Shown here: in pieces, positions 18,001-24,000 of the stretch
Numbering within the stretch: the first letter of the stretch is position 1
How the letters are laid out: each line of letters opens with the position of its first letter
Source: a candidate division FCPU426 bacterium
Lineage (GTDB): Bacteria > Oederibacteriota > JAAXVQ01 > JAUVAV01
Direction of reading: 5' to 3'
DNA: 64,000 bases
Assembly: GCA_040756875.1 (NCBI GenBank)
Contig: JBFLYH010000001.1
Span: 352,001-416,000, forward strand
Made by a program: the position numbers

Positions 18001-21000
18001 TGATCCCTTCACTGCGGCGAAGACGCTCAACATCATCTGCAATATTTGCGATCCGGTGACCGGCGAGGATTATTCTCGCGATCCGCGTCACGTGGCCCAG
18101 AAAGCGGTCAACTACGTGAAGACCCTGGGTCTGGCGGATACGCTGTATTTCGGGCCGGAAGCCGAGTTCTTCATTTTCGACGACATCCGCTTCGACCAAA
18201 ACGCCCACGAAGGGTATTACCACATCGACTCGATCGAAGGCCGCTGGAACTCGGGACGCTGCGAGAACCCCAATTTGGGATACAAGCCGCGTTACAAAGA
18301 GGGATATTTCCCGGTCCCGCCCACGGACAGCCAGCAGGATCTGCGCAGCGAAATGGTGCTCAACCTGCAGAAGGTCGGCATTCAAATTGAGGCCCACCAC
18401 CATGAAGTGGCCACGGGCGGCCAGGCCGAGATCGACATGCGGTTTTCGCCCCTGGTGGAGATGGCGGATAGCCTGCTCAAGTATAAATACGTGATCAAGA
18501 ATACCGCCCTCCGGTTCGGCAAGACCGTGACCTTCATGCCCAAGCCCCTGTACGGCGACAACGGCAGCGGCATGCACGTGCACTTCTCCCTGTGGAAGGA
18601 CGGCAAGAACCTGTTCGCCGGAGACGGCTACGCCGGCTTGTCGGAAATGGCCATGTACGCCATCGGCGGCATTCTCAAGCACGCGCCGGCCTTGCTGGCC
18701 ATCACCAGCCCGACCACCAACAGCTACAAGCGCCTGGTGCCGGGCTATGAAGCGCCGGTGAACCTGGCCTATTCGCGGCGCAACCGCAGCGCGGCCATCC
18801 GCATTCCCATGTACTCGACTTCGCCCAAAGCCAAGCGCATCGAGTTCCGCTGCCCGGATCCCTCCTGCAACCCCTACCTGGCTTTCGCGGCCATCACCAT
18901 GGCGGCCGTGGACGGCATTCAGAACAAGATCAATCCCGGCGAGCCGCTGGACAAGAACATCTACGACCTGCCGCCGGCCGAGGCTGCGAAAGTGTCCAAG
19001 ACGCCGGGGTCGCTGCGCGACGCCCTGAACGCCTTGTCCAAGGACCACGCCTTCATGCTGAAGGGAGACGTTTTCACGCAAGATGTAATCGACACCTGGG
19101 TAGACTACAAAATGGTCAACGAAGTCCAGGCCCTGGACCTGCGTCCGCACCCCTGGGAGTTCGCACTGTATTATGATATTTAAAAAGCCGCCCACAGCGG
19201 TTTTGTAAAATATGGTCCGCTGGCGGCTTTTTATCCCGGGGAAGTCCCCTTTACCGGGATAAAAAGCAAAGAGAAAGAAAGCCCTCCGGGAGAAATTCCG
19301 GAGGGCTTTTCTTTTACTGCAGGGAAACTGGGAGCTGCTTTTTAGTGCCGGCGGAAACGTCCGGGCTGTAAAAGCTCGAAAATCGCCGCCGTCCTTTCTG
19401 GTTTAAGCTTCTTTTGGGTCGGCGACTGTCGTATGATGTGTGCATGTCCGAACCACGAAAAGGGCACTCCAAACCGACATTGGAAGCGCTGGCTTCCGCC
19501 TGCCCGGGCGTGGACGAAAGCCTGTTGCGCAATCATTTGGAACGCCTGGATGAACGGTATTTCGCGCGTTTTAATTCGCCTGTCATCGCAACTCATGTGC
19601 AGGCCCTGTCCCGTCTCTCGCCCGAGCATCCGGTGGAGATCCTCCTGGATTTCTTGCCCCAACAAAAACTGGAATGCACGGTGCTGGCCTTCGATTACGT
19701 CGGGGAGTTTTCCCTGATTACAGGCATCCTGTCCGGGTTGGGCGTGAACATCCTCTCCGGCGGCATCCATACCTACGCGCGGGTCGAGGAACCGCCGCCT
19801 CCGCCGCGCGGGCGTTCCCCCCAACGCAGGAAAGTTGCGTCTGATCCCTGGCTGCGGCGCCGCATCGTGGACCATTTCTCCGGCACGCTGGAGACGGACC
19901 TGCCTCTGGACCGCTGGGGTTCGGATCTGCGGCGGCATCTGCAGGAAGCCTTGGGGTTGCTGGAACGCGGGCAGGAGGCGGACCGTTCCGAGGCCAAACA
20001 CCGGGTGAATGAACTGGTGGCCCGGCGCCTGGAACGCCTGCAGGGCCAGCAGGCGCCGGTGTTGTACCCCATGCAAATCAGCATGGAAAACGACCGCGGA
20101 CCTTTCACCCGGCTGCGGGTGGTCTCCCAGGATACGCCGGCTTTCCTGTACGCGCTCAGCAACGCGCTCTCGGTCAAAGGCATTTCCATCGAGCACGTGC
20201 GCATCAGCACGGACCAGGACCGCATCGAGGACCTGATCGATTTCGTGGACAGCCGCGGCGAACAGATCACGGATTCCGTCACGCTCGACCAGGTGCGGCT
20301 GTCCGTGCTCCTGACCAAGCAGTTCACCCATTTTCTCGGCCAGGCGCCGGACCCTTTCGCCGCGCTTTCCCGGTTTGAAAAACTGGTGGCGGATCTGCTC
20401 GCCCTGCCCGAACAGGGGCACTGGCTCGAACTTCTCTCCAGCCCCCGCCTGTTGCGCGACCTGGCCCAGTTGCTGGGGACCAGTGATTTTCTGTGGGAGG
20501 ACATGATCCGCCTGCAGTACGAGACGCTGCTGCCCATGCTGGCGCCGCATATGGAGGGCCGGCGCTTTGCCGACGCCCTGGAAACCCTGCCCGAACGGCT
20601 CGAACAGGCCCTGGCCGACGCCACGGACCTGGACACCCAGACCCAGCGGCTGAACGAATTCAAGGACCGCGAAATTTACCTGATCGACCTGGACCACATC
20701 CTCACGCCGGGCGCGGATTTCCGCCATCTGTCCGAATACCTGACCTTCCTGGCCACGGTTGTGGCCCGCGCGGCCGTGCGCCTGAACTACGAGGCATTGG
20801 CGGCGCGTCACGGACGGCCGCGCACGGTCGCGGGCCTGGAGGCCACGTTCGCCATCCTGGGCCTGGGCAAGTTCGGCGGCGCGGCCTTGGGCTATGCCTC
20901 GGACATCGAACTGCAGTTCGTGTACAGCGACCACGGCCAGACCGACGGCGCGGAACCCATCGCCAATTCAGAATTCTTCGAACGCCTGGTCCTGGCCTCG

Positions 21001-24000
21001 ACCAAATCCATCCGCGCCAAGCGCGAAGGCATCTTCAACATCGACCTGCGACTGCGGCCCTACGGCCAGGACGGGCCCCTGGCCACCAGCCTGGAGACGT
21101 TTTGCAATTACTACGGCCCGCACGGGCCGGCCCACGCCCTGGAGCGCCTGGCCCTGGTGCGGCTGCGGGCGCTGGGCGGGGACCGGGAACTGGGCGAGCG
21201 GCTGGAACGGGTGCGGGACCAGTTCCTTTACGAAAGCCACGGCTACATCAACCTCGAGGCCTTGCGCGAGATGCGGGAGCTGCAGCTGGCGGAAAAGACC
21301 CAGGCCGGCCGCATCAACGCCAAGTTCAGCCCCGGCGCTCTGGTGGATTTGGAGTACGACGTGCAGATCCTGCAGGTCATTTACGGGCGCGAACACCCCG
21401 AACTGCGTACGCCCCGTCTCCACCAGGCCCTGAACGGCCTCCAGCAAGCGGGCGTGCTGGCGGCCCGCGAGCACGAGGAACTGACCGCAGCCTACCAGTT
21501 CCTGCGCCAGCTGATCAACGGCTTGCGCATGCTGCGCGGGTCGGCCGAGGATTTGTTCCTGCCGCCGGCCGGTTCGGATGAGTACCGCCACCTGGCGCGG
21601 CGGCTGGGTTACATCCAGCAGGCCGACCTCGATCCGGGCCAGCAATTGCGGCTGGAATTCGAGGCCCGCACGGCCGCCGTGCGCGCGTTCGTGGACCGGC
21701 ACTTCGGGCCGGGCGCCCTGCCCGGCCGGGAGGCGGCCACGGTGGCCGACCTGATCCTGCTGGCCGAAGCCCCGCCCGAAATGCAACAGCGCATTTTGTC
21801 GGCTGCGGGCTTCCAGGATCCGGCCCGCGCTTACGTGAACTTGCGGAAATTGGCGGGCACTGACGAACAACGGCGCGAGCAGTTCCTGCGCCTGGCCATC
21901 CTGGCCTGCGACTTCTTGCAGCGCCAGCCGGACCCGGACATGGCCTTGAACAACTGGGAGCATTTTGCCGGCCGCCTGCCCGACCCGGCCGCCCATTTCG
22001 AGCAATTGCGCTTCCAACCCAAGCGTCTGGAATTGCTGCTCAGCATTTTTGCCAGCAGCCAGTTCCTGGCCGACAGTCTGGCGCGGAATCCGGAATTCCT
22101 GGACGTGGCGGTCGATCCCAAACGCCTGCAGTCCGTGCGAACCGTGGAAGAGCACCGCCAGGAACTGGGAGCTGCGCGCCGCCCGGACGAAAGCCAGGCG
22201 GACTGGCTCAACCGCCTGCGGCGCTACCGGCGGCGGGAAATCCTGCGCATCGGCACGCGCGACATCGGGCTGCACGCGCCCCTGGAGCAGGTGGCCTTGG
22301 ATTTGAGCCGGTTGGCCGAGGCCCTGACCCAGGAAGTGCTGGAGCAGGCCTGGGAATCCCTGCGGCGGAGCGGGCAACCGGATCTGGCGGCGGATTTCTG
22401 CATTCTGGCCTTGGGAAAACTCGGCGGGGAGGAGTTGAATTACAGCTCGGACATCGATTTGCTGGGCGTCTGCACCGAGGCGGGCGCCGAAGCGCGCCGC
22501 CGGGCCGTGGTGGAGCGCGGCGCCGACCCGTTCGCCCTGGCGCTGGAAGGCGTGCGGGCCGCGCTCAAGCAGTACACCGAGGAAGGGTACGCCTATCGCG
22601 TGGATTTCCGCCTGCGGCCGTACGGCGTGTCCGGGGAGCTGGTGGTTGCCGCCGACGCCCTGCTGCGTTACTACGCCCGTTCCGCGTCGCTCAGCGAGAT
22701 CCAGGCCTTGTTGAAACTGCGGCCCGTGGCCGGCAATCTGGAATTCGGGGCGCGGTTCTGCGGACAGGTGGGTGAATTGCTGCTGGCGCCGCGCGCAGCC
22801 GGGGAAGTGAAGCAGTCCGTGGCCGACATGAGGCGCCTCGCGGTGGAGCAGCTCGGCCAGCACGCCGAGGGCATGATCGATGTCAAAAGCGGCCTCGGCG
22901 GATTACGGGACATTGAATTTTTAGTCCAGGGCCTGCAATTGATCCACGCCCACCAGTCTCCGCACGTGTTGGACGTCAACACCCTGAGGGCATTGGTCAA
23001 ACTGGAGCAGGCGGGCCGCCTGGAATCTAAAACCGCGGGGCAGTTGCGCGAGGATTACATCTTTCTGCGCCGCGTGGAGCATTATCTGCAAATATTGGAG
23101 GATCAGCAAATTCATACCTTGCCAGTGGATTCCCGCGAAGTGGCGGCCTTGGCCAAGCGGATGCTGGGCCCGCAAGGCAAGGCCGAGGCGTTTTTACAAG
23201 AATTGTCCCAATGCTCGCAAAGGGTGAGGGAATATTACCAATCATTTCTGAGCACATAGCCAGTGATTAAAAATCCTTATTAAATAAGCAATAAAATCGT
23301 TTCAAAATAAACCACGCCTGTTTTTATCTTTTAAAATCAACTATATTATCAGTCCGGGAAATTGCGAGACGTTTTTTTCTGTGATATACTTCATATCTAT
23401 TGGAAATGCAGCCGCCTATTGTTTCAGGAATAGGCTTATACGACAGAGCGATTGGAGTTCTATGCTGTTAAGCCTTTGGCGCCAACCCAGCATCGCGTTA
23501 TGGGCCAAGAGCCTGTCGCTCGCTTTGTGCCTGGTTTTCCTCGCTCCGCTGCTGACCTGGGCCTTTGATCCGGCAACCTATCCCGCCAAACCCGGCTTAT
23601 TCCAATTCAACGGGCAAACACTGGCCATTCCTGAGAAGTGGGGCACAGTGCAAACCAGTTTTGCCGGCGGCGACCGGCTGGTCATCCACCTCCAGGACCT
23701 GCACTGCAATTACGAAGTCCAGATGAATATCGCCCGGGTCATCCGTTTGCTGGCCCAGCGCCACGAGCTGCACTTTGTGGCCGTGGAAGGCACGCACCTG
23801 CCGCTTAATACCACCAAGCTGCGGACATTTCCATTGCCCGAGGTGCGGGAGGAAGTGGCGGATTATTTCGTGCGGCAGGGGCGCCTGTCCGGAGCGGAAT
23901 ACTACGCAGCCACGGCCGACCGGCCGGTCCGCCTGGAAGGCGTCGAGACCCAATCCTTGTACGACCGCAACCGCAAGACCGTGGATTTCATCCTGCGCCA

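Follow-up and report, generated by a model that had tools for sequence, protein, structure and literature searches.

The GlnD-PII-GlnE-GS cascade is a textbook circuit, known in a handful of Proteobacteria and Actinobacteria. The glutamine response of GlnD is described as dependent on its ACT domains, and an amylase is made responsive to activation by glutamine through an algal ACT domain that aligns with these (PMC11190351; PMC3173338); one of the sources adds that the conserved Asp of the algal enzyme is dispensable for glutamine sensitivity (PMC11190351). For GlnE, a preprint reports direct glutamine sensing by the E. coli and Herbaspirillum enzymes and places the sensing of ordinary GlnE in its C-terminal part (bioRxiv 10.64898/2026.09.02.748916).

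The 1,271-aa GlnE described here shares with the canonical GlnE/ATase (NF008292, PF03710 + PF08335; 1V4A, 3K7D) a pair of nucleotidyltransferase halves whose acidic triads are intact, a score over the cut-off, and a gene next to glnA, whose type I product has the target Tyr. The canonical enzyme, however, is without the ~290-aa ACT module, has its halves in the opposite order, and carries D-x-D in its adenylylating half (AT), whereas the ACT-linked AT-type half carries D-x-E. Both halves of the ACT-bearing form (ACT-GlnE) fall outside the sampled canonical groups of AT halves and of removing halves (AR). With the helix-ACT-ACT region of GlnD (TIGR01693) the module is colinear and agrees at the conserved Y, H, D, F and T, but the last ~240 model positions alone are shared at length, and ACT-GlnE has neither the HD domain nor the order of GlnD; its module is N-terminal or internal, carries a longer insert within and behind ACT1, and is without the glycines of the loops. 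Plant ACR11/ACR12 and Chlamydomonas AMA2 also use GlnD-like ACT domains outside GlnD, but they are eukaryotic, stand-alone or amylase-fused, and were compared by weak Pfam matches alone (PF24931 14/101). Our literature search, which covered few subscription papers, found no published description of an ACT-bearing permuted GlnE.

The gene, its neighbours and its relatives

The window, the whole 64,000-nucleotide stretch that was analysed, contains the gene directly 3' of glnA; the earlier note had placed it next to glnA (Table 1). The product is the sole GlnE match of the genome; it scores 546.4 bits with the GlnE model NF008292 (cut-off 487), is matched twice by PF03710, and scores below the cut-offs of both NF010707 and NF010706. 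With the full GlnD model TIGR01693 it reaches 64.5 bits against a cut-off of 519.4, and it is not a full-length NT-HD-ACT-ACT GlnD. GlnE-type sequence begins near residue 296-302 and not at 338, as had been thought, and the extension therefore comprises ~290 aa instead of ~330. Judged by motifs, profiles and trees, the order is ACT-ACT, AT, AR, the reverse of the N-terminal AR and C-terminal AT of E. coli GlnE, and the protein is circularly permuted relative to the E. coli enzyme, a point that the earlier note did not contain.

Table 1. Features of the glnE locus (window coordinates).
Feature	Position	Strand	Remark
glnK-type PII	12166..12507	-	Val at position 51
amtB ammonium transporter, copy 2	12554..13867	-	Pfam-assigned
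glnK-type PII	13934..14275	-	Val at position 51
amtB ammonium transporter, copy 1	14333..15679	-	73% identical to the Pfam-assigned copy 2
GAF + sigma-54 activator, NifA-like	15883..17421	+	527.7 bits, cut-off 528.85
sigma-54-type -24/-12 pattern	17688..17702	+	exact match, 57 bases 5' of glnA; a lead
glnA, type I glutamine synthetase	17759..19183	+	adenylylation-loop tyrosine Tyr402 kept
glnE-family gene, 1,271 aa	19444..23259	+	helix-ACT-ACT, AT-type half, AR-type half
Helical segment, residues ~10-58	19471..19617	+	matches helices preceding ACT1 in GlnD
Segment between helical segment and ACT domain 2 (helix-ACT-ACT layout)	19627..20043	+	matches E. coli GlnD up to 744
ACT domain 2, residues ~209-287	20068..20304	+	matches E. 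coli GlnD 812-870
Helical linker + first nucleotidyltransferase half, AT-type	20329..21708	+	motif LGYASDIE, 482-489
Helical linker + second nucleotidyltransferase half, AR-type	21736..23256	+	motif LNYSSDID, 998-1005

The glnA product is the only GS-like match of the genome at E<=1e-10, and as a type I GS it has the tyrosine that GlnE adenylylates. The Tyr is likewise found in 45 of the 47 neighbouring type-I GS matches, the other two being cut short, and glnA lies directly upstream of the GlnE gene in 39 of the 69 loci with enough flank. The -24/-12 pattern, which we take to represent sigma-54-type sites, is not enriched in the window, since five matches with at most one mismatch compare with 6.5 expected, only the one upstream of glnA being exact. 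No nifH over the cut-off was found in the genome.

Relatives of the protein are arranged as ACT2-AT-AR, as AR-ACT2-AT, or as ACT2-AT with AR encoded by a neighbouring gene of its own, and in all three layouts the ACT pair directly precedes the AT-type half. The split form, found at 2/2 loci examined, rests on the related loci L221 and L222, and other single-half proteins may be contig fragments; a 48-row tree did not resolve the order of the internal, split and permuted forms. The subfamily carries the labels Desulfobacterota, Spirochaetota, Kiritimatiellae/Verrucomicrobiota, Chitinivibrionales, Calditrichota and Nitrospirota, as well as those of Firestonebacteria/Goldiibacteriota-labelled genomes. 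It represents a rewiring of the GlnD-PII-GlnE-GS circuit at the domain level across several phyla, and supplies both a natural circular permutation and a natural split of GlnE.

The helix-ACT-ACT module

Residues ~10-290 form a helical segment and two ACT domains that are colinear with the C-terminus of GlnD. Aligned by HHalign, 15 GlnE N-termini match 14 GlnD C-termini at 98.9% (E 3.5e-17, 232 columns), and two stretches of E. coli GlnD, 652-744 and 812-870, align in that order with a profile built from 120 homologous N-termini. Single-sequence scores are weak, as the earlier note had conceded for this copy: residues 1-330 alone match NF003467 at E 7.7e-11 and TIGR01693 at E 6.7e-8 (best stretch, model positions 615-836), and the Pfam ACT match at residues 222-276 (E 1.9e-4) is under the cut-off. 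The comparison of family profiles is nevertheless clear and, together with the fold model, it bears out the proposed homology to the ACT-ACT region of GlnD; the fusion of a GlnD module to GlnE is confirmed as real. At least 552 homologues of the N-terminus were found at E<=1e-5 among the best 8,000 candidates, and the earlier claim that such homologues bear GlnE domains is true of all of the best 120, the matches listed.

The fold model gives two ACT folds for the module (pLDDT 94, pTM 0.91), the tandem arrangement of GlnD/ACR-type ACT domains, and the ACT pair was also modelled together with the first catalytic half (pLDDT 92, pTM 0.89). The best structural matches are ACT regulatory regions, with aspartate kinase at Z 10.7 (rmsd 4.8, 169 aligned) and the regulatory domain of threonine dehydratase at Z 7.8. 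The top Foldseek match is the large NAD-glutamate dehydrogenase GDH180 (E 1.7e-5), whose ACT-like modules resemble this one in fold (TM 0.39 by query), but the sequence match is negligible (E 0.26; PF21075 in 1/101), and an origin from this enzyme was rejected in favour of GlnD (98.9%). Because PDB searches with the module returned no GlnD structure, the fold ranking of GDH180 does not compete with GlnD; solved structures searched with the single sequence and with a 15-row profile gave nothing for the module.

In the helical segment, R34, Y39, F43 and H51 are conserved and the helices are present in the model; PF27446 (named GlnD_5th) is assigned on the homologues P0011 and P0013. ACT domain 2 has conserved DTPxFLY (230-236) and D263. 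Among 147 rows the Asp of the strand-helix ligand loop is kept (D84 93%, D230 98%) and the GlnD loop glycine is not kept (position 87, G 32%; position 233, A 67%, F 21%, G 5%). Column conservation over the 120 homologues is 0.72-0.73 in the ACT domains against 0.75 and 0.65 in the catalytic halves, the ACT figure being biased upward because these homologues were chosen by the ACT region. An atlas search returned ACT/GlnD-like clusters only, a lead.

We propose, with a probability of about one half, that the ACT pair is a sensor of an amino acid, probably glutamine, that turns on the AT half, and that the GlnD module was gained once. The AT half of an old GlnE subfamily would have acquired the C-terminal helix-ACT-ACT module of GlnD in a single event, after which ACT2-AT would have moved as a block to a place behind AR, to a separate gene beside AR, or to the front of AR, the last giving the circular permutation of this protein. 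The pair would bind the amino acid and, once occupied, allosterically activate the adjacent AT half, which would adenylylate and silence GS at plentiful nitrogen; the AR half would remove the mark constitutively or under the control of unmodified PII/2-oxoglutarate. We infer the reaction of each half, the ligand and the direction of control, and such an ACT-gated scheme would work with or without GlnD. The placement of a sensor module on the half that resembles an off-switch suggests a shortcut for sensing nitrogen status. As a tentative extension, with the odds somewhat against it, the GlnD ACT pair on the AT half may make an autonomous sensor-writer, a self-contained nitrogen switch of several phyla that could be moved into lineages without GlnD or a uridylylatable PII, and the eraser half would therefore be free to stand on either side of it or to have a gene of its own. 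The compact, confidently modelled GlnD-type ACT pair offers a system for the study of ligand binding, and a natural one-way, ligand-gated adenylylating enzyme would interest engineers of ammonia release, for which truncated adenylyltransferases have been used (PMC9249168).

The pair could instead sense another amino acid or metabolite, as a second input beyond the glutamine site of ordinary AT halves. The loop glycines differ from those of GlnD, and the form persists in genomes with the full GlnD-PII-UMP route (31/49), to which a glutamine-only shortcut would add little. Moreover, direct glutamine sensing is, by the preprint cited above, not special to ACT-GlnE, and since the ordinary enzyme has glutamine sensing of its own, a further site for glutamine may be redundant. 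However, GlnD is the donor of the module, and glnA, amtB and glnK are neighbours of the gene, and we consider a different ligand fairly unlikely. We find it harder still to believe that the module binds no small molecule and acts as a surface for docking or oligomerisation, with GS, PII or the AR half as the partner, that holds the rearranged or split enzyme together. The model does place it with confidence against the AT half (pTM 0.89), the halves are freely reordered where it is present, and plant ACR11, a stand-alone GlnD-like ACT pair, is proposed as a target binder by a disputed mechanism (PMC12702975), but conservation is highest in the strand-helix loops (D84, D230, T231, P232, F234), the counterparts of the loops with which ACT domains bind ligands (PMC3173338).

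GlnD and PII in genomes with ACT-GlnE

As the earlier note stated, GlnD is absent from the class: no TIGR01693 match at E<=1e-25 was found in 15 of 15 class genomes. Outside the class, where that note had not looked, the absence is not general, as GlnD is kept in 31 of 49 non-class genomes with ACT-GlnE (30 over the cut-off, 1 partial at a contig end), in 5/7 of a random Desulfobacterota sample, and in 6/10 genomes with the internal form. These counts contradict the rule that the ACT form implies no GlnD. The rule that a GlnD-free GlnE needs ACT is contradicted as well, by ACT-less GlnE in family f12 of the same phylum (GlnD 0/8; 6/8 classified) and in the GlnD-free genomes among ACT-less Spirochaetota (6/15). 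ACT-GlnE is therefore not simply a GlnD substitute.

In both amtB-linked GlnKs of the window the uridylylation position, Tyr51, is occupied by Val. Of five PII proteins four were aligned, and one of these, divergent and with a non-canonical loop, has Tyr51, which rules out that all five are without it. The motif YRG[AH]EY is present in 24 of the 25 PII proteins fetched from GlnD-keeping genomes, and YRGxEY in 0/49 PII sequences from GlnD-free genomes.

The earlier suggestion that ACT-GlnE may sense glutamine directly and not through uridylylated PII is partly supported, by the GlnD origin of the module, the absence of GlnD from the class and Val51 in the GlnKs of the window; as a general rule it is not supported, given the 31/49. 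In its stronger form, that the fusion arose and acts as a GlnD replacement in lineages without GlnD, it draws on the 15 class genomes, on the absence of GlnD in 7/7 sampled Spirochaetota with the N-terminal form and in 18/49 other genomes, and on the PII motif. As a general rule it is contradicted by the genomes that keep GlnD and by ACT-less GlnE in GlnD-free genomes, and Streptomyces GlnE is reported as independent of PII and GlnD (bioRxiv 10.64898/2026.09.02.748916); we regard the replacement reading as improbable.

Assignment of the catalytic halves

The acidic triad of the first half (D487, E489, D534) is invariant in 120/120 homologues and that of the second (D1003/D1005/D1054) is present in 119/120, the remaining one being truncated; both nucleotidyltransferase domains of the protein have intact catalytic acidic residues. 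N999, R1052, R1155, Q1216 and Q1222, typical of canonical AR halves, are retained in the AR-type half, and the diagnostic columns are mixed, with several AT-like residues in this half. With AT and AR profiles (34 canonical halves of GlnE in each), the half that follows the ACT pair prefers AT in all N-terminal (23/23), internal (7/7) and single-half (16/16) forms, and the other half prefers AR in 20/23 N-terminal and 9/10 internal forms; the second half of the 1,271-aa GlnE itself scores AT 6 bits over AR. Trees split AT from AR at 100/98 (52 rows, LG+G4; 32 rows, mixture model) and unite the ACT-linked halves in one clade (100/100), and the positional tree was rejected. A 145-row set was treated with FastTree; there, long branches led to the misplacement of one Actinobacterial AT row.

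That the labels are wrong, the ACT-linked half being the remover or an independent duplication and the ligand inhibiting GS reactivation, we consider very improbable. In its favour, the AU tests reject its trees only marginally (p 0.047 for the ACT-linked half as AR, p 0.027 for independent duplication), this half has a long branch and a private D-x-E motif, and each half matches the opposite E. coli structure (1V4A, 3K7D) slightly better. Against it, the split holds under two models (100/98), 46/46 ACT-linked halves prefer the AT profile, and the other half retains the N, R, R, Q and Q typical of AR and, in the internal form, takes the first place, like AR in E. coli. The reversed motif order recurs in 75/80 independent genome loci, the other five being cut or broken before the second motif, which rules out an assembly artefact.

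The ACT module and the order of the catalytic halves

The GlnE-family protein beside glnA is the sole GlnE match in the source genome, whose completeness is rated 100%. The catalytic triads of both of its halves are intact and the neighbouring glutamine synthetase retains the target Tyr; we expect the GlnE chemistry to be unchanged. The GlnE-type sequence starts at about residue 296-302, and the N-terminal extension is therefore ~290 aa long, shorter than the ~330 aa (GlnE part from residue 338) given in an earlier note. GlnD models match the isolated extension weakly (best E 7.7e-11). 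A profile of 120 homologous N-termini, on the other side, matches E. coli GlnD 652-744 and then 812-870 colinearly, and 15 N-termini compared by HHalign with 14 C-termini of GlnD reach 98.9% across 232 columns, which bears out the note's claim of homology to the C-terminal ACT region of GlnD. Fold searches with the module recovered regulatory ACT regions, at Z 10.7 and 7.8, as well as the large glutamate dehydrogenase, to which the sequence match is negligible. Conservation of the ACT columns is close to that of the catalytic columns, in a selection of sequences biased toward the ACT columns. Some family members already bear ACT in automatic Pfam annotation.

Features of the window around glnE
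Feature	Position	Strand	Remarks
GlnE-family gene, 1,271 aa	19444-23259	+	3' of type I glnA; NF008292 score 546 against a cut-off of 487
12,520-aa ORF	23381-60943	+	directly 3' of glnE
Two tandem amtB-glnK pairs and NifA-like GAF/sigma-54 activator	12166-17421		the two GlnK share 94% identity; pairs and activator are divergently oriented
Sigma-54-type site, one mismatch	15722-15736	-	ahead of amtB

Canonical GlnE has the adenylyl-removing-type half (AR) first and the adenylylating-type half (AT) second; its motif 1 is almost always ELN-x-x-x-D-x-D, and motif 2 is more variable, with Asn often replaced by Gly. The window protein carries LGYASDIE as motif 1 and LNYSSDID as motif 2, and 75 of the 80 genome loci show this type of order, the remaining five being cut or broken ahead of motif 2. 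Profiles built solely from canonical halves, 34 N-terminal (AR) and 34 C-terminal (AT), placed the half following the ACT pair with AT in 23/23 proteins; the last half was placed with AR in 20/23, that of the window protein being among the three exceptions by 6 bits. In an IQ-TREE analysis of 52 rows picked from 145 (canonical proteins, 13; ACT family, 15), a split supported at 100/98 places the last halves with AR and the ACT-linked halves with AT, and a mixture-model tree of 32 rows repeats it. Stricter tests rejected independent duplication at p 0.027 only and AR identity of the ACT-linked half at p 0.047 only. Diagnostic columns are mixed, although counterparts of E. coli AR R221, R324, Q385, Q391 and S171 occur in the last half only, and pairwise scores against two E. 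coli structures slightly favour the opposite labels. Taken together, these results make the permutation of the window form relative to the form with an internal module firm, and the AT and AR labels probable. A tree keeping the positional order of the halves was rejected (p 5e-70), mostly due to the tie among ACT-linked halves across layouts.

Layouts and distribution

Searching 1.84 billion representatives with a profile yielded 248 proteins at E<=1e-30. Among the 150 matches listed, the module also lies mid-protein (AR-ACT2-AT, ACT2 being the tandem pair; one from Calditrichota by name) or in ~740-aa proteins that pair ACT2 with one AT-type half (one from Nitrospirota by name). In both metagenome loci located for such a protein, a separate AR-only gene adjoins the ACT2-AT gene on the opposite strand. 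All layouts have the ACT pair immediately ahead of the AT-type half, and the ACT-linked AT-type halves form a single clade (100/100). Of the 32 GlnE-bearing Spirochaetota genomes classified, 7 have the N-terminal form and 15 lack ACT; the other 10 have the internal form, which is interrupted in one genome and weak and cut in another. GlnE occurs in 90/201 sampled Desulfobacterota genomes; the ACT type was found in 10 of 40 fetched (nine whole, one broken), which were picked by ORF length and give no frequency.

Both the fusion and the permutation are secure, and a nitrogen-regulation specialist would not expect them. The architecture is new and spans several phyla, and its regulation is probably new as well; no description of an ACT-bearing permuted GlnE was found in the literature searched, which left out most subscription journals.

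Some variants were also seen. In the 997-aa protein P0187, ACT2 and its lone AT-type half are preceded by a fused dihydroneopterin aldolase domain of the FolB type (TIGR00525, 72 bits). In genome G103 (loci L032, L149) the ACT-type glnE is split within the first catalytic half into frames of 633 and 776 aa that lie on one chromosome, separated by ~2.08 Mb; the cause is probably a misassembly or an inversion. Five Spirochaetota genomes without GlnD (G422, G436, G468, G415, G503; loci L237, L251-L254) encode a 903-937-aa GlnE whose AR-type half is intact and whose C-terminal half is strongly degenerate (<45 bits). At L244 (G367) and L245 (G352), half 1 of GlnE is degenerate, with no catalytic motif, and half 2 is intact.

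GlnD, PII and the role of the ACT pair

The earlier note had paired the ACT form with the absence of GlnD. This holds within the class, where none of 15 genomes has a GlnD match at E<=1e-25, but not outside it: among 50 genomes chosen from the 80 loci, one of which turned out to be a class member, 31 of the 49 others keep GlnD (30 over cut-off, one partial), most of the genomes in these and the following counts being incomplete MAGs and relatives not being independent. The 31 carry Deltaproteobacteria/Desulfobacterales-type labels, apart from one Planctomycetota, and glnD lies inside the glnE flank in 5/80 loci. In the Desulfobacterota sample (80/90 tested), GlnD accompanies 72/73 non-ACT forms, most typed by length alone, and 5/7 ACT forms; in Spirochaetota it accompanies 0/7 N-terminal, 6/10 internal and 9/15 ACT-less forms. 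Another family of the source phylum has eight genomes with GlnE and without GlnD, and the six classified are canonical, with no ACT. Since the ACT form occurs with GlnD and ACT-less GlnE without it, the module is neither linked to the absence of GlnD nor needed for it. Eight Desulfobacterota-type genomes with ACT-type GlnE (G110, G117, G118, G121, G127, G132, G135, G142) carry two full-length glnD over cut-off, near each other on one contig.

Given that glutamine stimulates adenylylation and that the ACT pair is always joined to the AT-type half, we infer that the pair may hold an allosteric site, probably for glutamine, that would gate adenylylation by the adjoining half, a reading to which we give a probability of about 0.5. 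Passages in two papers, following Zhang et al. 2010, state that the GlnD ACT domains are needed for the glutamine response (PMC11190351; PMC3173338). According to parts of a 2026 preprint (bioRxiv 10.64898/2026.09.02.748916), in which the whole word ACT is absent, the C-terminal part of GlnE is where the E. coli and Herbaspirillum enzymes sense glutamine directly, Rhodospirillum AR is seemingly constitutive, and Streptomyces GlnE does not need PII and GlnD. That the pair binds a ligand other than glutamine is unlikely, and a docking role for the module somewhat more so. Pure replacement of GlnD, compatible with the class, is not general across genomes with ACT-type GlnE and appears improbable. 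Swapped AT and AR labels, toward which the pairwise scores against the E. coli structures slightly lean, run against the profiles and trees and are the least probable of these.

In the source genome, where four of the five PII-like proteins were aligned, position 51 is Val in both amtB-linked GlnK, Met in a third PII and Tyr, within a non-canonical loop, in a divergent fourth. This divergent PII (G000:C2:266551-266868, L002) is class-wide, with a rewritten T-loop and Tyr at 51 in genomes without GlnD. Among top-scoring matches only, YRG[AH]EY is present in 24/25 PII fetched from GlnD-keeping non-class genomes and in 0/49 from GlnD-free genomes, 14 of these 49 PII having Tyr51. No nifH over cut-off was found in the source genome, which encodes the NifA-like activator.

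The giant ORF 3' of glnE

The 12,520-aa ORF has a coding-type GC content by codon position (0.70/0.46/0.81). Searched as three pieces it gave no Pfam match at E<=0.001, and blastp found no internal repeats. At least seven stretches elsewhere in the source genome are paralogous to its first ~550 aa, and a relative comes after glnE in two other loci (L023, L029).
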